Virus record (IMG/VR): IMGVR_UViG_3300026519_000001
Location: 30,262 to 94,261 of that record
Reading direction: 5' to 3' (one strand)
Source: a virus
DNA length: 64,000 nt
Every line of letters begins with the position of its first letter. Positions within the stretch are counted from its first letter, which is position 1. Below the pieces are notes generated by a model. That model was not told the origin of the DNA, did no database searches, and saw nothing but the letters and a program-made list of their open reading frames with translations. Of this stretch, positions 29,513-57,806 are shown in pieces. Both the position numbers and the translations under genes were made by a program.

Positions 29513-30195
29513 TATGTTTTAAATTGTTTAGTCAATCTCTCAATCATTCTTTGAGCTTCTCTTGGAGCAATGCTAAATTGAGATAAAGATGATCTAATAC
29601 CATGGTCTAAATGTTGAATAACTTTCAACTCTTCATCACAACCACATTCAACACATTGCTTACATTCAAAATAATCCTTTGTTAGTTCATTCTTTTTAAT
29701 CCTTAATTTAGTAGCTAATAATTCTTTCACCTGAACTAATTCATAAATATTACTATCAGATAATACAGAAACATCAAATACTGGTTGTAATATTAAACTT
29801 GTGTCATACTGTCTCAAATCAGAAGTTGGTATATTATATACAATTAGATTTTCAACAGGCGCAGGCACATTAGGAGATGTTGTTGTATTAACAAGAGTAT
29901 AAATATAAGTATACCACCCATCAAGATTATAAGCTACCGCAAATGAACTCTCCTCTGTATTAGGGAAAGTATTATTATAATCAATATCAGTTGAAAGAGA
30001 TGTTAATAATTGAGAATCACCTTCATAAGGTTGATAATAAACCTGTAATACACCAGCTAAATCTAATCTTTCAGTATTAGGAGCGCCATAGCCAGCCTCA
30101 TTAAAATTTAAAACATACGCACCTGTATTATCTTTTATTGTAATAGATGATGCATCTGCTTCGTATGTTATACAAAGTTTTGGTGTTATAGGCAT
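29512..30195 (-). CDS. Putative tail hub protein
   Basis: I.DNTG.Y.....GYG.PN, DGWY and a C-terminal Cys cluster; follows the auxiliary capsid gene as in crAss-like phages. Confidence 0.45.
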   Translation of the reverse strand: MPITPKLCITYEADASSITIKDNTGAYVLNFNEAGYGAPNTERLDLAGVLQVYYQPYEGDSQLLTSLSTDIDYNNTFPNTEESSFAVAYNLDGWYTYIYTLVNTTTSPNVPAPVENLIVYNIPTSDLRQYDTSLILQPVFDVSVLSDSNIYELVQVKELLATKLRIKKNELTKDYFECKQCVECGCDEELKVIQHLDHGIRSSLSQFSIAPREAQRMIERLTKQFKT

Positions 30196-44021: not shown

Positions 44022-44035
44022 TCTTATTTATTTTG

Positions 44036-44109
44036 TAGCGAGACCAGGATTTGAACCTGGGTCTTCAGCTTATGAGACTGACGAGTTAACCATCTTCTAC
44101 TATCTCGCT
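44036..44109 (-). tRNA. tRNA-Met (CAT), initiator-like body
   Basis: Acceptor AGCGAGA/TCTCGCT, anticodon arm TCAGT-CTCATAA-GCTGA, T arm CCAGG-TTCAAAT-CCTGG. Confidence 0.85.
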
Positions 44110-44118
44110 ATTTTATCG

Positions 44119-44201
44119 TGTCCTTGGCAGGGTTTGAACCTGCAAACTTTAAAAGCACTAGATTCTAAATTTAGCATGTGTACCGATTCCATCACAAAGA
44201 C
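44119..44201 (-). tRNA. tRNA-Leu (TAG)
   Basis: Acceptor GTCTTTG/CAAGGAC, loop TTTAGAA, long variable arm, T arm GCAGG-TTCAAAC-CCTGC, A73. Confidence 0.8.
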
Positions 44202-44475
44202 ATTACTATTTTTATTAAGTTTCACTTTCTATTGGCTTGTTTAATATTTCTTTAAGACCTTCTTCAATATCCTTATAGGTTATATTATTATAAAACTTGT
44301 TATTCATACTATGTAAAGATTCAGCCTCTTCAACTAGAGCCTTAGCCTTATTTATCCTAATCCTTATCTCTTTATTATTCATACTGCAAGTATAATATTA
44401 TAATATATAAAAAACAAGTGATAACGTATATTTATTTCTAATTATAAAATAAATAGAAAATAAATTGACAAATCA

Positions 44476-44506
44476 TTGCATTTGTGAAAATTAAAGTGTA
44501 GCTTTG
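44476..44506 (+). promoter_or_regulatory. Bacteroidota sigma promoter (TTG-N20-TAGCTTTG)
   Basis: -33 and -7 elements at canonical spacing, at the strand switch upstream of a structured element and the tRNAs. Confidence 0.55.
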
Positions 44507-44659
44507 AGCACAAAGTCGTAGACTAATGACAAACCTACCCCAATAATGTGGTGGCTTCCTCTTGGAATCTCGTCATAGATTAATTAAACTTTACCAAGAT
44601 AAGGAGTAACTATTATTTGGGTTGCCCCCTTTGTAGGCATATTTAAAAGCTAAAATAAC

Positions 44660-44764
44660 ATGAAAAAAAAGAAAAATAATAAAGTAAAAAAGGTAAGAAT
44701 AATACAAAGCAAGATTGAAAATAAAATTATACGAAAAAAAACATTAAAAAAAAGAACTAAATAA
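44660..44764 (+). CDS. Tiny very basic peptide (34 aa, MKKKKNNKVKKVRII...)
   Basis: ATG with A-rich leader; Lys/Arg-rich. Could be a chance ORF in A-rich DNA. Confidence 0.3.
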   Translation: MKKKKNNKVKKVRIIQSKIENKIIRKKTLKKRTK

Positions 44765-44884
44765 TTAGGAATTAACAGAATAAAATATTAATATTGCACA
44801 ATGATTAAAATATACCAACATAATACACCTGAACATAGCCCTGCGAATAGCAAGGATGACTTTATGTGTGGGTGATGTTTTACC

Positions 44885-44941
44885 ATTATTCATAAAAAAA
44901 TCCTTTCTAGATTGAATAGAAAGGATTTTTTTATGAATAAT
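44885..44941. repeat. Perfect 25-bp inverted repeat with 7-nt loop (bidirectional terminator or cruciform)
   Basis: ATTATTCATAAAAAAATCCTTTCTA-gattgaa-TAGAAAGGATTTTTTTATGAATAAT. Confidence 0.85.
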
Positions 44942-44943
44942 AT

Positions 44944-45017
44944 CTAGGTACGATCCATTGGTGTGGTTGCCTCACTTGGAATGAGGATTATTAAAGGTTC
45001 GAATCCTTTTACTTAGA
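44944..45017 (+). tRNA. tRNA-Pro (TGG)
   Basis: CTAGGTA/TACTTAG, CCTCA-CTTGGAA-TGAGG, AAAGG-TTCGAAT-CCTTT. Confidence 0.8.
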
Positions 45018-45023
45018 CTAAAT

Positions 45024-45095
45024 GTTCCCATCGTCTAATGGTTAGGACGTTAGCTTTTCAAGCTAAAGATCAGAGTTCAATCCTCTGTGGGAATA
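45024..45095 (+). tRNA. tRNA-Glu (TTC)
   Basis: GTTCCCA/TGGGAAT, TTAGC-TTTTCAA-GCTAA, CAGAG-TTCAATC-CTCTG. Confidence 0.88.
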
Positions 45096-45101
45096 CTATA
45101 A

Positions 45102-45174
45102 TGAGGAATAGCACAACTGGTAGTGCATCAGATTTTGATTCTGAAGATTGTAAGTTCGAATCTTGCTTCCTCAT
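45102..45174 (+). tRNA. tRNA-Gln (TTG)
   Basis: TGAGGAA/TTCCTCA, TCAGA-TTTTGAT-TCTGA, GTAAG-TTCGAAT-CTTGC. Confidence 0.88.
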
Positions 45175-45180
45175 CACATC

Positions 45181-45251
45181 CCTCCTATAGTTCAATGGTA
45201 GAATATCTGCTTGTGATGCAGAAGATGTGGATTCGAATTCCACTAGGTTGA
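45181..45251 (+). tRNA. tRNA-His (GTG), atypical or possibly pseudo
   Basis: Good D, anticodon (TCTGC-TTGTGAT-GCAGA) and T arms. Acceptor CCTCCTA/TAGGTTG has two mismatches; A73 and no G-1. Confidence 0.65.
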
Positions 45252-45259
45252 CATTGAAA

Positions 45260-50336: not shown

Positions 50337-50686
50337 GGGGCTGACTGATATTGACAGGATGATATTGATAATATATGCAAGCACGTGATGATATGAGACA
50401 CGTATGAAACGTATCAACTTAATAATTAACAAGAATGAAAATTCTGCTGAAGACATACAAGGTATGGAATCAGCTTTAGCTGAAGCTAAAGTAATCTTAA
50501 TGACTCCTGTAAAGGAAGAAAGAATGCTAATTGCAGCTTAATCGTTTAATTGTATTTGATAAAGGTTTATTAATTCCTTAAAAATTAAATAATGCGAATA
50601 TATAATTAGTAATAATTATTAAAAGCTTGTAATATCATATATTATTTATACATAGCTGGACCAGAGTTTGATTCTCTGCAGCTCCA
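50337..50686 (+). ncRNA. ssrA: tmRNA
   Basis: 5' GGGGCTGA; 3' T arm CAGAG-TTTGATT-CTCTG; acceptor CAGCTCC-A with G3:U70; pk1 (ACGTG/CACGT, TGATATG/CGTATCA); tag ORF 50428-50541 ending LIAA-stop. Confidence 0.88.
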
Positions 50687-50770
50687 CTTAACCAAATATG
50701 GTACTCAGTCTGTAAAAGGGTAGCTGAGTTACTATATTTGAATTTTATATTTAAATTAAACAAAAGTAAA

Positions 50771-51343
50771 ATGAAAAAAATATTAATTTTAATAACTTTA
50801 ATAGGATTTGTGAGTTGTAATTCATTTAAAGTTGATCCAATTACAGCATACATAATTGATGAAGGTCAACATAATTCATATTCATATAATTTTAATAATA
50901 AACGTAAAAAAAATCCTATTGCACCTATTTTAATACGTGGTAATAGATTAGAATTTAATTTTATGTTTACATCTCAACATATTTACAATTATAATATTAA
51001 AGATGGTGATGATATTAATAAATTATATGGGATAACATCTACTAAGATACATCAAAATTCAGCACGTTTTGGGTGGAGGTATATTGGCAATAATAAGTTT
51101 GAAATATTTGCATATTATTATGTAAAAGGAATTAGAGATTGGTATAGTCTATTAATAGTTAAAATTAACGAAACTGTTAAATATTCTATTGATGTAAGTA
51201 ATAAACAATATACTTTTGGTGCTAATAATAATTGGCATCATGTATATAATACAAAAAATATAATGGCATTTAGATCATATCCTTGGTTTGGTGGCAATAA
51301 TACTGCACCACATAAAATGATATTTAAAATAATAGAATTATAG
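50771..51343 (+). CDS. Lipoprotein with beta-sandwich (lectin/ConA-like) character
   Basis: MKKILILITLIGFVS-C lipobox; DINKLYG, H.NSARFGWR and YPWFGG motifs; TATATTTG at 50733. Confidence 0.6.
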   Translation: MKKILILITLIGFVSCNSFKVDPITAYIIDEGQHNSYSYNFNNKRKKNPIAPILIRGNRLEFNFMFTSQHIYNYNIKDGDDINKLYGITSTKIHQNSARFGWRYIGNNKFEIFAYYYVKGIRDWYSLLIVKINETVKYSIDVSNKQYTFGANNNWHHVYNTKNIMAFRSYPWFGGNNTAPHKMIFKIIEL

Positions 51344-51639: not shown

Positions 51640-51782
51640 ATTTCTTTAATTATTTTCAATTGTTTAAATATAGTTAGATTTTTAACACAATTGAATATAA
51701 TGATAAATTTTATCCTAATGGTTTGTAACGGCTATTGTATGAAGCGGCACGATTTTACCGCACGAATTTTAAACAATAACTA

Positions 51783-52232
51783 ATGACTGAAAACAAAACA
51801 ATACTTCGATTAAAAGACAATGTAAGTGCTGATTTATATACATTGTTAACTACTGGGCGGATTTTATTTATGACGCTTAATAGAAAATGGTACACCAAAA
51901 TTGCGTGTGGAGAAAAGAAGGAAGAATATAGAATCATTAAGCCTTATTGGATTAGACGATTTATAAACTGGATGAGCGAACCAAACTGGGGAATGAACGA
52001 CTTTGTGAGAGAATTTGAATATCACGGCAATGAATTAGGCTTTATTGAAAAGCACGGAAAAGAATTTGACTTAATTGTATTTGTTAATGGATACGGAAAT
52101 GCACCAACTACAATAGTAGAGCATAAAGGGCTTGAAATAAAGACTGGTAGAGAAGATTGGGGAGCGGTGGCAGAGCAATTTTATTTAACTATTAAACTTG
52201 GCAAAGTGCTATACACCGAGCCTTGTAGTTAA
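51783..52232 (+). CDS. ASCH-domain-like protein (cassette gene)
   Basis: L..KWY..I..GEKKEEYR.IKPYW..R and F.NGY motifs; stop codon lies inside TAAC. Confidence 0.7.
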   Translation: MTENKTILRLKDNVSADLYTLLTTGRILFMTLNRKWYTKIACGEKKEEYRIIKPYWIRRFINWMSEPNWGMNDFVREFEYHGNELGFIEKHGKEFDLIVFVNGYGNAPTTIVEHKGLEIKTGREDWGAVAEQFYLTIKLGKVLYTEPCS

Positions 52233-52385
52233 CGGTTTGTATATGATTTTGTAGGCATAGACAAGCACGAACTTTGGATTAGATACCTACTTAAATAGAA
52301 AGAATTAAACATTGAATTATTAACCAACTGCCTATAAATTATATACTTTGTTATATATCTGGGCGGTTTTAAAAACAAAAAGATT

Positions 52386-52676
52386 ATGACTAAAGAAGAA
52401 TTTAAAAACAAGTACTTAAAAAACGCTTTCTTTTGGATAAATGAAGAGAACCATATTAAAATACAAGAAGTGATGCAAGAGTTTGGCATTCGATGTGTTA
52501 CTGGAAGTGGATTTATAAACTGGCACGAAGGATTTAAAAACTTATGTACTTTCCCGCCAAACGGTTTTACAGGACACGAATTTTACCAAAAAGTAGATGT
52601 GTGGACACCAAACGCAAGATATGGAGAACCTAAAAATATTGAGCGTTTTTTTGTTGATTATAAAGCACTAACGTAG
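52386..52676 (+). CDS. Hypothetical cassette protein
   Basis: Fills the space between GTT 52350 and AAC 52687-52689. Confidence 0.6.
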   Translation: MTKEEFKNKYLKNAFFWINEENHIKIQEVMQEFGIRCVTGSGFINWHEGFKNLCTFPPNGFTGHEFYQKVDVWTPNARYGEPKNIERFFVDYKALT

Positions 52677-52944
52677 CCTTGTATATAACTTTAAAGAGTA
52701 TGATTTGTAGCGGTTAAATAACTAAAAATAATATTTAAAATGAAAACAATAATAGATAATTTAAATGAATTAAAGGAACTAAATATTTAAAGTGTGGAAA
52801 AAAATATATTGTAACCAAAGATTGCCTAGGTTATTTTATAAATGTAAGAAACGATAATGAAGTGATACAAGCTACAAACTCATCCTTTTTTAAAAAATAA
52901 TTACTTACAACTGAATAGTATAACAAATTTTAAATTTAAACATT

Positions 52945-53169
52945 ATGACAGGAGAAGAATATAGTAAAAAGTACGATTTAGCTATCAATTTTAAAATAAT
53001 GGCTAAAGAAGCATTTAATGAAGGATTAAAACAAGGTCGTTCAGAAAATGAAACCAAACGTTTTAACAAACTTAAAAGGGAAGTAATAAAATTAAGGGAA
53101 GAAAATAAATGGATGAATGGTGTACTTAACGATCCTGAAAAGTTAGCGGATTGGATTGGTGGAATTTAA
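52945..53169 (+). CDS. Hypothetical protein inside an attC-like hairpin loop
   Basis: Flanked by GTATAACAAA and TTTGTTATAC arms. Confidence 0.6.
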   Translation: MTGEEYSKKYDLAINFKIMAKEAFNEGLKQGRSENETKRFNKLKREVIKLREENKWMNGVLNDPEKLADWIGGI

Positions 53170-53361
53170 TTTTTGTTATACATAGTTAATAGCTTTTTTA
53201 GGTAAGTTTACGCAGAATAAAATTAACACAAAAATAAGTGAACAGAATACAAAAAGTATCGCAAGAATTACGTAATATGCTAAAATTGCATACTAACGTA
53301 GCGGTTATGGCTTGTGCGGTTAAGAAGTTGAATTTTAAAATAACAATTAAATAATATTGAA

Positions 53362-53763
53362 ATGGAAGCAAAAAATTTAAGAATTGGAAATTATTACTAT
53401 CAAGATGGTTTTTATAGAATTGAAAGAAATAAACCAAGAATATATATACCAACTAGGAATTTTATATTAAATAAAGAAACTTTAATTTGGCTACTTACAG
53501 AAGGCGAATTAGATTATATTAAGCCTATAAAATTAACAGAAGAATGGTTAATAAATTTTGGATTAATTGAAACACATTATGGCGAATATATTTTAACTAA
53601 TAATTATTGGGGTATCTATTTTTATTATGATAAAGATGAAGAATATTGGTTTGTAAATGCTAATAATGAATATGCAATATGCAAATTTAAATACGTACAC
53701 GAATTACAAAATTTATTTTTTGCTTTAACTGGAAACGAACTAGAATTTAAGCATAAGTTATAA
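53362..53763 (+). CDS. YopX-like phage protein, inside a hairpin loop
   Basis: LRIGN, IKPIKLTEEWL..FG and KYVHELQNLFFALTG.EL motifs. Confidence 0.65.
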   Translation: MEAKNLRIGNYYYQDGFYRIERNKPRIYIPTRNFILNKETLIWLLTEGELDYIKPIKLTEEWLINFGLIETHYGEYILTNNYWGIYFYYDKDEEYWFVNANNEYAICKFKYVHELQNLFFALTGNELEFKHKL

Positions 53764-53914
53764 CCTTAGTTGGTATTTGTTTTGGAACTGGTAAAAGCAC
53801 TTAGCAAATAAACGCCAAAATAAGAAATTATTGGCAAACTTTTGTAGATACATAAAAACAACCAATATAAACTGCAACGGAATACAGCTATGAAGCGTTG
53901 CCGACTAAAACATT

Positions 53915-54250
53915 ATGCAAGTAGGAGAAAAATTTGATTTTAAAAAATTGTCAATTAGAAATGTAGATGCAAATTATATCCTAAAAATATTACGTTCTAA
54001 TATGTCAATATTCTGGTCGTGGGGTGCACGTGCATTCGTTGACCTTAATGGCAAAGGTTTACGACTTACAGTTAGTGGACACCATCACAAAGGTCATTTG
54101 TACATTGTTCTAAATGGTGCAGACTTATTTGACATATACTACTGCTCTAATCGTGGCACTATCAAAGATGTACATACCGATATATTCTTTGACCAATTGG
54201 TTGAGGTTATTGACAACAAAATTGAACGTATAGCAGACTATACGTATTAA
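53915..54250 (+). CDS. Hypothetical phage protein
   Basis: GL...V.G..HKG..YI.LN..DLFDI...DIFFDQLV..ID..IE. Confidence 0.6.
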   Translation: MQVGEKFDFKKLSIRNVDANYILKILRSNMSIFWSWGARAFVDLNGKGLRLTVSGHHHKGHLYIVLNGADLFDIYYCSNRGTIKDVHTDIFFDQLVEVIDNKIERIADYTY

Positions 54251-54283
54251 GATAAGCGAGTCCGTCAAATCTGAACGGAAACT

Positions 54284-54313
54284 AGGTAAGGGGGTTAAAT
54301 TCCCTTACCTTTT
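54284..54313 (+). terminator. Intrinsic terminator
   Basis: AGGTAAGGG...CCCTTACCT followed by TTT. Confidence 0.65.
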
Positions 54314-54564
54314 AATTTCCCTAAGTATTAGGATATTAAGATAGAACAATGTACATTTGTTAAACACTAAAGCAAAAGAAGCTAAAGAGTTTGTGAAAAT
54401 AGAATACGAACAGTACCAATATGACACCTTAGTAACTAAGGACAGTAATGGCAAGGAAGAATCTACAAGTATTAACTATAAAGAAATGGTTAATTGGATT
54501 ATACGCACTAAACCTAATGGTGCGTAACGCCTATTGTATGGTGCGTTATAAAGCTAAAATTGAT

Positions 54565-54828
54565 ATGAAAACACAACCTAAAAGTACAAGAGAAAAAGTA
54601 ACTATGGAAGAAGTAAATAAGGCACTATACAAATTGTTAGGTGCTGTTGGTTCTTCTGTTGAATTTACTTACAAAGGGGACAAAAAGGTAAAAGGAATAC
54701 TTCTTGTACCTATTGAGGAAGGTATTTTGCTTGAAATGCAATCGGACTACATAGCTAATGAAGAATGGTTTGCAGGTGAAAAGAAGTATTTCGAGAATAG
54801 GACGGTGTATAATTACAATTGCACCTAA
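54565..54828 (+). CDS. Hypothetical chimeric cassette protein (start refined to MKTQPKST)
   Basis: Starts in a hairpin loop, reads through the right arm (ALYKLLGAV), and stops in TAAT of the next degenerate site. Confidence 0.55.
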   Translation: MKTQPKSTREKVTMEEVNKALYKLLGAVGSSVEFTYKGDKKVKGILLVPIEEGILLEMQSDYIANEEWFAGEKKYFENRTVYNYNCT

Positions 54829-54921
54829 TGGCAAAGAGAGTAGTATGGAGGGGTGGAAATGTTGCGGTTAATATAGGCTAAACGCATTGCGTTTATATTA
54901 AAATCAATAAAATAATATAAT

Positions 54922-55742: not shown

Positions 55743-55910
55743 ATGTTATATATATTATTAAGCATATCATTATTTTTAAGTATAATATCATTGTATGGAA
55801 TAGTTAAAGTGTTAAATAATGATAATTTTAACAATTTGAGTATTAATCAAATTATATTTGTTTGGCTTTTAATGAGTATTTCTTGGGGAATTTATAGTTA
55901 TTTATTATGA
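55743..55910 (+). CDS. Small two-TM membrane protein (55 aa)
   Basis: Read manually; ATGA overlap with the next gene. Confidence 0.5.
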   Translation: MLYILLSISLFLSIISLYGIVKVLNNDNFNNLSINQIIFVWLLMSISWGIYSYLL

Positions 55911-56863
55911 TGAAATCAGAAGAAAAATTACTATCAATAAATGAATTAGAAATAGGGAGATATTATCATTGTAGTTGGAATAGTTACCATAATGTAGCTA
56001 TTACTTATATTAAAGAGCCAATAATAAAAAAAAATACTAATTTTACATTGTTCTATAAACAAAAATTATTTAAAAATAATGGAGAATTAACATCATTGTC
56101 TAATAAATTCAGACCAGCTACATTATCTGAAATAAAATGGTTTGATAAATGTAAAAAAGCTGGTAAATTTGTACCAAAAAATTATGCTCCTAAAAGTAAT
56201 ATTCCAAATGAGCTGTTAGATAATGTTATTTATACTTATTTTAACGGAGATATTGTTAGGTGGGGAGCTCAAGCTCATTTAGGTAATGGTTGTAAAGATT
56301 TTTTTAAAAGAGGTAGCAATATTAATAATATACCATCTAATTACACATTTTCAACTCAAAGTGAACGTGAATGGTTAATTACTTGTGAAGAAGCAGGTAA
56401 GTTTATTAAATTTGAGGATAGATATAATATGAAATTATCTATAAAGAGAACTTTATTAACTAAAGAAGATTTTAGAAATACTAAAATTTTATTAAATGGA
56501 GATGAAGAAAAATCTAAGAAATTTCAAGATTTAATATTTTCACTTGATATTGAATGGTTTCATAGTAGAAAAAATTATACTCATTTAAAAGCAACATATT
56601 TAATTATTAATAATAATTACAATTTATTTTATGGAGTTGACAAAACAGAATTTAAAACAGAAGAAGGAAATGAAATATTTTATAATGATTTATTTTCTAT
56701 AATTAATCCTAAATTTAGAATACAAGAAGAAAATAACTTATTAAAAAGATCAAATGAAGTAATCAATAAAATTGAATTATACATTAAGCCTCAATATAAA
56801 GTTATTGAACAAGCACAACAAGTTAAATTAAAATTAAAACAAATTAAATTAATAAAATTATGA
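55907..56863 (+). CDS. Hypothetical protein with internal repeated module
   Basis: AT.SEIKWF.KC.KAGKFV and ST.SEREWL.TC.EAGKFI are duplicated. Confidence 0.6.
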   Translation: MMKSEEKLLSINELEIGRYYHCSWNSYHNVAITYIKEPIIKKNTNFTLFYKQKLFKNNGELTSLSNKFRPATLSEIKWFDKCKKAGKFVPKNYAPKSNIPNELLDNVIYTYFNGDIVRWGAQAHLGNGCKDFFKRGSNINNIPSNYTFSTQSEREWLITCEEAGKFIKFEDRYNMKLSIKRTLLTKEDFRNTKILLNGDEEKSKKFQDLIFSLDIEWFHSRKNYTHLKATYLIINNNYNLFYGVDKTEFKTEEGNEIFYNDLFSIINPKFRIQEENNLLKRSNEVINKIELYIKPQYKVIEQAQQVKLKLKQIKLIKL

Positions 56864-57290: not shown

Positions 57291-57806
57291 ATGATAGAAA
57301 TTTGGAAAGATATAGAAGGTTATGAAAATCATTATCAAGTATCTAATTTAAATAATTATAGGTCAATAAAAAAAGGAAAAATAAGAAATTTAAAATTAGG
57401 AAACACAAATGGGAGACCAACTTTAAATTTATCAAAAGATGGTGTTGTAGAAAAAGTATATTTCAATAAAAAATATCGTAGTAAAAATGAAAATTACACA
57501 AAAGGAGATAAAATAAAAAATATGAAATTTATCTCATATACTGATAGGATAGGTGGTAAATTTGAAATAGCTATATTTGAATGTCCAATATGTCGTAAAC
57601 ATTATAAAACTACTTTTATTACTGTTTTTAACGGAACTAAATCTTGTGGTTGCATTAGAAAATCTAAAAGAAAAATAACACCTGAAAAAGTATTAAAAAT
57701 ATTAAAAATAAATCCTTTTATAAAAACAAATGAATTGACTAAAATATTTAATATAAGTAAATCTTGGGCTTTAAAAAATAAAACATTAGCATTTAAATTA
57801 ATGTAA
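57291..57806 (+). CDS. NUMOD4-domain protein (homing-endonuclease-related; no clear HNH)
   Basis: EIWKDIEGYE..YQVSNL, plus CPIC...KSCGC and a C-terminal HTH-like segment. Confidence 0.7.
   Translation: MIEIWKDIEGYENHYQVSNLNNYRSIKKGKIRNLKLGNTNGRPTLNLSKDGVVEKVYFNKKYRSKNENYTKGDKIKNMKFISYTDRIGGKFEIAIFECPICRKHYKTTFITVFNGTKSCGCIRKSKRKITPEKVLKILKINPFIKTNELTKIFNISKSWALKNKTLAFKLM

Follow-up and report, generated by a model that had tools for sequence, protein, structure and literature searches.

A candidate array of mobile gene cassettes in a crAss-like phage, and the hairpin family that it shares with Bacteroidota

Integrons, and the attC-site clusters without an integron-integrase (CALINs), are recognised as arrays of unrelated small accessory genes set between imperfect palindromes of 60–160 nt with AAC and GTT cores. 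A 64,000-nt stretch of DNA from the IMG/VR virus record IMGVR_UViG_3300026519_000001 (hereafter the window; bases 30262–94261 of a 94,261-bp contig) raises the question of whether a comparable system has built part of a phage genome. The block at 51.7–54.9 kb of the window, in which eight small open reading frames (ORFs; g1–g8) are separated by spacers of 90–310 nt, had been described in an earlier reading of the letters (the original prediction) as an integron-like array of attC-style cassettes inside a crAss-like phage. The obtained results point to an array of mobile gene cassettes that belongs to an integron-like system specific to Bacteroidota and their phages, a reading to which we give a probability of roughly two in three. 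The window alone is only suggestive, because complete sites are few and the folding of two of them does not exceed that of shuffled sequence. The significance of the block comes from a permutation test of end pairing, from a second array in the same genome, and from recurrence in hundreds of independent sequences.

Sites and gene ends in the two arrays

The genome carries some 25–30 cassette sites distributed over two arrays, of which the block in the window is the smaller and partly decayed one. The second array, larger and cleaner, lies outside the window at genome 2.9–11.5 kb (locus L009), where about 20 small ORFs on the + strand each have a site of this layout behind them. Over 9–14 nt, what comes after a GTT is complementary to what precedes the AAC of the next site, and not to the AAC side of its own site; examples from the second array are the pairs GTTAGGCAAC/GTTGCCTAAC, GTTAGGGTGCG/TGCACCCTAAC and GTTACCTAC/GTAGGTAAC. 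An automatic rule, by which the GTT nearest before each start was matched to the first AAC met at the stop, was applied to both arrays. Six of 20 cognate pairs matched at ≥5/6 variable positions, compared with 1.9% of 578 non-cognate pairs (permutation p<5e-5). This bears out the claim that the start of a cassette is complementary to its own end, as in integron cassettes.

The thirteen complete sites of the genome were folded, and the attC-type layout was observed, with a short paired core (AACGR/YTGTT), an asymmetric internal loop, a stem of 18–22 bp and a loop of 30–70 nt. The AAC core, spacer, long imperfect stem, variable loop and GTT core that had been proposed are therefore present, and several cores fit the integron consensus RYYYAAC...GTTRRRY exactly (GCCTAAC, GTTAGGC). 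Owing to G.T pairs, folding favours the top strand over the bottom one by up to 10 kcal; for site G the values are −31 kcal and −16.5 kcal, respectively. In a structural scan of the genome, the strongest matches were found only in the arrays and only on the + strand.

The sites and genes of the window are listed in Table 1. Every string quoted in the original prediction was found, most of them placed there by their last base. Of its three complementary pairs, those of A with B (51845/52233) and of site G with the 3′ end of g7 (GCACCTAAT, 54821–54829; quoted as 54636/54829) match at 9/9 positions, and that of B with C (52350/52689) matches at 8/9; the core that closes the g7 pair has decayed from AAC to AAT. 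Its "about eight sites" come down to three complete ones (A, B and G), with C, the g3 flanks, D, E and H being partial or decayed. Stop codons lie inside TAAC or TAAT in g1, g4, g6 and g7, which is four of the five clear cases, g2 being the exception. The identity of 25/28 between the left ends at 51714 and 54513 holds, and the higher GC content of the block is real and modest (0.26–0.34, against 0.21–0.27 in the flanks). Site A is paralogous to site B over its entire length, and both arms of B have a 96% copy at genome 5321–5464, in the second array. In run X1 of the source sample, which comes from a hydrothermal vent, the assembly graph branches at site B (window 52231–52373), for which the copy in the second array is one cause. 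A third variant of B was present in the same run at a depth of 8.2 against ~20, so that the sample holds a second related phage or allele.

Two further features of the second array were observed. Its first gene (L009 2515–2943, genome coordinates) encodes a Dam-type N6-adenine methylase. Two identical 29-nt "empty cassettes" of the form GTT-X-CGTTTTAATG-X'-AAC, devoid of an ORF of their own, are located at L009 3314–3342 and 6026–6054 (genome coordinates) and are overlapped by two paralogous small hydrophobic ORFs (MAFETLNL.. and MTFETLNV..); the same unit type recurs in many IMG/VR loci.

The hairpin family, its units and its polarity

The family was defined by the pattern AACGNTTNGTATATG-N80-110-ATATACNNTGTT, which holds 26 fixed bases and was searched by exact matching. 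This gave 102 matches in phage contigs of IMG/VR; GTDB genomes held at least 120 more, nearly all of these in Bacteroidota, including Polaribacter, Zobellia, Tenacibaculum, Marinifilum and Pontibacter. Stem pairs were counted in position-anchored form over 84 viral and 121 bacterial unique elements (MAFFT misaligned short and bulged sites). Stem positions 7 and 12 were G.T in 96–99% of these elements, and positions 8–11 and 13–16 were Watson-Crick in 85–99%, with three to four pair types at each. The 16–18-bp stem of the family is a conserved, covarying helix with two near-invariant wobble positions; a 1-nt bulge was limited to one subfamily. Neither G.T position has drifted to G-C or A-T, a constancy that speaks for recognition or strand choice more than for pairing as such. 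No Rfam family matched the sites, and a literature search for the element sequence or a prior description of it found none.

Complementary gene ends were likewise identified across the family. Among ORFs of at least 40 aa downstream of 87 unique IMG/VR elements, most end in an X'-TAAC that matches the GTTA-X behind the hairpin at 7/7 positions. The X/X' pairing in these loci reaches 12 bp, with a fixed G.T at position 11, and a wider scan gave 115 unique cassettes matching at ≥7/8. The ORFs start 15–20 nt after the GTT, behind a conserved leader CGTT(T)nATTATG, and N6_N4 methylases are the commonest protein family beside the elements in IMG/VR (18 loci). The cultured Polaribacter phage P12002L carries the family; its site at 29974–30077 is identical to the published P12002L_attC1, which is near-identical to the site at genome 9005–9132 of the crAss-like phage.

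Several cassette genes of the crAss-like phage recur in other phages within cassette frames. The homologue of g1 in Cellulophaga phage phi19:1 (gp040) has kept the complementary ends, and distant homologues of g4 (in L026, L048 and L060) stand in cassette frames with complementary ends, as a homologue of g6 (in L089) does in a cassette context. Homologous ORFs can occupy different frames, each complementary to itself; the g2 homologue in IMG/VR locus L017 (49% amino acid identity), for example, has different ends that are again complementary to each other.

Comparison of the loci revealed shared blocks of 303–409 nt with 92–99.5% identity that start and end exactly at AAC, each consisting of a hairpin, a leader and an ORF (examples are L034/L078, L046/L112 and L076/L085). 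Beyond the block ends, identity over 60 nt is only 13–42%, which falls well short of what homologous recombination needs. In L076 and L085 the shared blocks are 98–99.6% identical and are arranged as a,b,c,d,e,f,g in the first and as a,b,e,c,f,d,g in the second. With only the AAC core of a few nucleotides common at the breakpoints, the pattern is the one expected of site-specific and not of homologous recombination. Cassettes have thus been shuffled within the family, in line with the cassette-shuffling system originally proposed, and those of the crAss-like phage may be mobile in the same way. A relative of this phage in run X2 shows ~95% identity in both flanks (50346–51247 and from 54906) but not in the array. 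Joints with sides of 20–24 nt that were reported in X2 are not trusted.

The orientation of the flanking genes differs between phages and bacteria. Flanking ORFs were located on the G.T strand in 79 of 84 phage elements and on the opposite strand in 100 of 112 bacterial elements. The bacterial arrays are organised as in classical integrons, where the strand that folds better is the bottom one, and the phage arrays are the mirror image of this. The shared AAC-to-AAC units show that a phage gene moves together with its upstream hairpin, and they place the crossover on the AAC side of the coding strand, equivalent to G/TT (between G and TT) on the other strand. The integron-like reading was right in kind, and needs correction in its polarity, in the side of the crossover and in the enzyme. 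An array in Polaribacter glomeratus (L131 1396–7070) illustrates the bacterial form: at least six unrelated genes, encoding a peptidase C1, a SnoaL protein, a DUF711 protein, a fatty-acid hydroxylase, a CPBP-type protease and a Fic protein, run antisense to the sites, with conserved spacers of ~310 nt. These spacers hold an extra conserved segment of ~190 nt with the CGTTTTAATG motif beside the hairpin, which may be a cassette-borne promoter or leader.

These data bear on the rival that survives best, in which the hairpins and the pairing of the 5′ and 3′ gene ends would act in mRNA (processing, stability or stop-start translational coupling) and shuffling would proceed by homologous recombination between hairpins, as in the PeSL (early promoter and stem-loop) cassettes of T4-type phages. 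In the phages, every non-Watson-Crick position could form G.U on the sense strand, which is also the better-folding top strand; the position of the stops within TAAC, the starts close behind GTT and its leader, and the ORFs that begin in a loop would also suit an element acting in mRNA, and the crAss-like phage encodes a Sak4-like annealing protein and a RecE-like exonuclease. In bacteria, however, the mRNA would contain A.C mismatches at the same two positions, yet the G.T pairs are equally conserved there, so the structure is most simply a DNA feature, although the phage hairpin may additionally serve in mRNA. The fixation of G.T speaks against this rival as well. Exchange through the extended homology of direct repeats is not what the blocks display, since their identity ends at AAC and leaves no outside homology to drive recombination. 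We consider an explanation at the RNA level unlikely.

The candidate recombinase and the proposed mechanism

A system of mobile cassettes requires an enzyme, and the phage provides no obvious candidate. No PF00589 tyrosine recombinase is present in the complete phage genome, a tblastn search of the phage with nine Xer-like recombinases gave nothing below E 0.2, and Pfam and PHROG scans of 30 + strand proteins revealed no recombinase candidate. Besides the annealing protein and the exonuclease, these scans identified a NUMOD4/HNH endonuclease, a Dam methylase, a primase, helicases and an RNA ligase. Any enzyme must therefore come from elsewhere, so that of the two sources originally suggested, the rest of the genome or the host, only one outside the phage is left. 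At the bacterial loci, the commonest neighbouring family is a 306-aa Xer-like tyrosine recombinase, with homologues within a few kb of a site at 9 of 120 bacterial and 6 of 102 viral loci. It passes the NCBIfam XerA/"integron integrase" model NF040815, fails the integron-integrase model TIGR02249 (216 bits, cut-off 265), and aligns end to end with XerA (5hxy) and in two pieces with IntI4 (2a3v). A PF00589 protein was found in 12 of 45 element-bearing viral records. Our best guess is a trans-acting Xer-like recombinase that is borne by the host or a co-resident element.

The nature of this enzyme also bears on whether the sites are true integron fragments, that is, CALINs composed of ordinary attC sites from a host integron and recombined by classical IntI at G/TT. 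The layout and the exact consensus cores would fit, HattCI called P12002L_attC1 an attC site, and virulent phages are known to contain CALINs (Qi et al., 2023; PMC9892861). In that study, however, P12002L_attC1 was predicted by HattCI alone and not by HattCI plus Infernal, and it was the only one of six phage sites without verified recombination by IntI1. IntegronFinder surveys detected almost no integrons in Bacteroidetes (PMC9024848), yet the present element occurs in at least 120 Bacteroidota genomes. The nearby recombinase lacks a continuous match to IntI and stays below the TIGR02249 cut-off, fixed mismatches take the place of bulged extrahelical bases, and the phage ORFs have the reverse polarity. 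We regard integron fragments proper as quite improbable, and recombination by a classical IntI is not supported, given the Xer-like enzyme near the arrays of some relatives and the behaviour of P12002L_attC1.

Non-autonomous hairpin transposons inserted between genes (palindrome-associated transposable elements or repetitive extragenic palindromes of the IS200/IS605 or RAYT type, or miniature inverted-repeat transposable elements), with the cassette appearance as a by-product, would account for short conserved hairpins at three to four or more copies per bacterial genome, for a canonical 123-nt form that is highly conserved across orders, and for the paralogy of site A, site B and the copy at genome 5321, but they are very improbable, as they give no account of the pairing across a gene to the left side of the next hairpin, the shared units include the gene, and no HUH/Y1 transposase stood among the commonest neighbouring families (no search by family name was made).

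Insertion elements are found beside some hairpins. A DEDD transposase of the IS110/IS1111 family adjoins the hairpin on the same strand in L227 (3552–4517) and at three other bacterial loci. IS1111-attC elements target integron attC sites, and the neighbours of the hairpins can be likened to them.

In the favoured reading, that of mobile cassettes, a unit has three parts. The first is a site of 90–160 nt that would fold as single-stranded DNA, with an AAC core, a spacer of 2–5 nt, a stem of 16–20 bp with the two G.T pairs, a variable loop, a short spacer and GTT. A short conserved leader follows, and then a small ORF whose last 9–14 nt (X'-TAAC) can pair with the 9–14 nt after GTT (GTTA-X). 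A site-specific recombinase would cut the AAC/GTT core of the folded G.T strand and exchange entire units, which could thereby leave an array, enter it or change their order. Once a unit had been cut out as a circle, pairing of its complementary ends would turn the site into a single long hairpin. The enzyme would act in trans and most likely be a Xer-like tyrosine recombinase that the host or a co-resident element encodes. As cargo, the units carry accessory genes, DNA methylases among them, with a function that is probably anti-defence.

Several observations weigh against this reading. Within the genome, the window array is decayed, the folding of A and B is no better than that of shuffled sequence (z −0.4 and −1.3, respectively), and g1 and g7 start in a hairpin loop and read through GTT; in g1, the protein conservation with phi19:1 gp040 covers the stretch from loop to GTT. 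With regard to the enzyme, the phage is devoid of PF00589, as are 10 of 18 complete element-bearing phage records, including the L076 record in which shuffling is seen; only a minority of sites have the Xer-like candidate nearby; and the one family member tried with IntI1, P12002L_attC1, was not recombined. Across the family, cassettes with the same end type X encoded homologous proteins in 0 of 82 pairs, similarity between loci stopped at the start codon in 78 of 133 right boundaries, and "empty" frames (GTT-X-leader-ATG-X'-AAC), which do not fit the model, are common. These last three findings imply a further process that swaps ORFs within a conserved frame or restores the complementarity of the ends. 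On the broader proposal that Bacteroidota and their phages share an undescribed integron analogue, with an Xer-like enzyme lacking the IntI insertion, G.T-marked hairpins, and a mirror-image use in phages in which the site supplies the leader and sometimes the start codon, our judgement is evenly divided.

Setting of the array, related systems and meaning

The contig has a terminal overlap of 127 bp, is classed in IMG/VR as having direct terminal repeats, and is 100% complete by CheckV. The phage is marine and, judging by its proteins, a member of the Crassvirales: a 2147-aa ORF matches the virion RNA polymerase of phi14:2 (6vr4) over ~2000 residues (E 2e-185), and the capsid protein matches gp32 of crAss001 (7qof; E 1.6e-154), with portal and terminase genes also found. 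The crAss-like identity given in the original prediction is therefore upheld. Gene strand switches near 46 kb of the window, and the block sits in a + strand module shared with the replication genes.

Table 1. Features of the block at 51.7–54.9 kb, in window positions.
Feature	Positions	Strand	Description
Hairpin site A	51714–51866	+	Left core TGTAAC 51724–51729; right core GTTAACTAC 51845–51853
Cassette gene g1	51783–52232	+	149 aa, phrog_625; start in loop of A; stop inside GTTAAC
Hairpin site B	52220–52371	+	Left core GTAGTTAAC 52225–52233; right core GTTATATAT 52350–52358
Cassette gene g2	52386–52676	+	96 aa; TAG stop 11 nt before AAC
Decayed site C	52676–52944	+	Left core GTATATAAC 52681–52689 and left arm intact; right arm near 52872–52892 without GTT; broken small ORF within
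Gene g3 and flanks	52918–53181	+	g3 52945–53169, 74 aa, within a 19-nt inverted repeat, 89% complementary (GTATAAC at 52918, GTTATAC at 53175)
Cassette gene g4	53362–53764	+	133 aa, phrog_10066; stop inside TTATAAC 53758–53764
Gene g5	53915–54310	+	ORF 53915–54250, 111 aa; then terminator-like hairpin 54284–54310
Gene g6	54357–54527	+	56 aa, TTG start, probably 5′-truncated; stop inside GCGTAAC
Hairpin site G	54513–54650	+	Left core GCGTAAC 54522–54528; 16-bp stem; right core GTTAGGTGC 54636–54644
Cassette gene g7	54565–54829	+	Start in loop of G, reads through GTT
Decayed last site H and right array edge	54821–54921	+	X2 relative regains ~95% identity from 54906

A sigma-70 promoter scan gave promoter-like sites at background level (57 against 47.6 expected), the motif TTGTTANNTANCTGGGCGG had five matches in IMG/VR, within chance, and the Bacteroidetes −7 box (TAnnTTTG), considered as an identity for the right arm, did not fit on reading the sequence. 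Among four terminator-like matches, the notable one is the pair at 54284–54310 after g5. For phi14:2, the published study reports no common early-promoter motif; the non-coding stretch of that phage at 2905–4601 (1.7 kb) is the region reported as highly transcribed early.

Close relatives of the phage were not found: a phage database gave only a 141-nt match to phi19:1, protein anchors in IMG/VR gave relatives at 36–47% amino acid identity or none, and a metagenome scan with g9 gave no match. The distant relatives L006–L008 had hairpin scores at background only, and the cultured relative phi14:2 (bases 1–55000 scanned, L235 and L236) had none of the hairpin elements.

Other features of the window were also identified. 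Six tRNA genes (Met, Leu, Pro, Glu, Gln and His) are clustered at the strand-switch region (44035–45252), and a possible phage transfer-messenger RNA lies at 50337–50689 (+), with a full-length match to RF00023 at 36.4 bits (gathering score 47, E 7.6e-12). A 318-aa orphan ORF at 55907–56863 (+), 1 kb 3′ of the array, has a low-confidence Atlas model; it had no homologue among 5.8 billion proteins, no Pfam or PHROG match and no recombinase likeness. The NUMOD4/HNH homing endonuclease is free-standing at 57291–57806 (+), among replication-module genes of unknown function.

The system resembles integrons and CALINs, especially sedentary chromosomal integrons, in its complementary cassette ends, its discrete and reorderable units, and its fixed non-Watson-Crick features that favour one strand; methylase cargo is also found in phage CALINs (Qi et al., 2023; PMC9892861). 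It differs from integrons in that the paired ends span 9–14 bp rather than the classical 7, and in that its sites have two fixed G.T pairs (read as A.C on the opposite strand) where those of integrons have bulged extrahelical bases. In the phages, the hairpin lies upstream of the gene and the genes are on the folding strand, whereas the bacterial arrays of the family keep the integron polarity. Integron cassettes are promoterless, while here some ORFs (g1 and g7) start inside the site itself, and no IntI accompanies the arrays.

Modules that depend on Xer offer a second comparison, namely the plasmid dif (pdif) modules of Acinetobacter plasmids and the integrative mobile elements exploiting Xer (IMEX) such as CTX phage. 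These have short bounding sites and a host Xer-family recombinase acting in trans, as we would propose here, and CTX phage uses a folded single strand as its substrate, as may be the case for the hairpins. Their sites are dif-like and 28 bp long, unlike the long AAC/GTT hairpins in tandem arrays. The mobile regulatory PeSL cassettes of T4-type phages, reportedly described by Arbiol et al. in 2010, are alike in that stem-loop repeats between the genes border small novel ORFs, in regions of lytic phage genomes that are plastic, and bring about gene shuffling. They are direct repeats that recombine by homology, unlike the present units, with breakpoints at a 3-nt core devoid of flanking homology and complementary gene ends.

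Integrons have been held to be nearly absent from Bacteroidetes and to occur in phages only as rare, tiny fragments, and here a lytic crAss-like phage carries 25–30 sites of a family that extends to more than 100 contigs of phages and to more than 120 genomes of Bacteroidota. Such a system appears to escape standard integron surveys. If the proposed reading is true, a second lineage of integron-type machinery exists, with a different enzyme and a different marking of the active strand. It would explain the build-up of plastic accessory regions in numerous phages, marine and gut-phylum ones alike, and it would expose a gene pool that lytic phages have in common with the chromosomes of their hosts. 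With its sites, phage P12002L provides a cultured test system. The cassettes would then be a main channel for the exchange of anti-defence and other accessory genes among the lytic phages of this phylum, and between these phages and host chromosomes.

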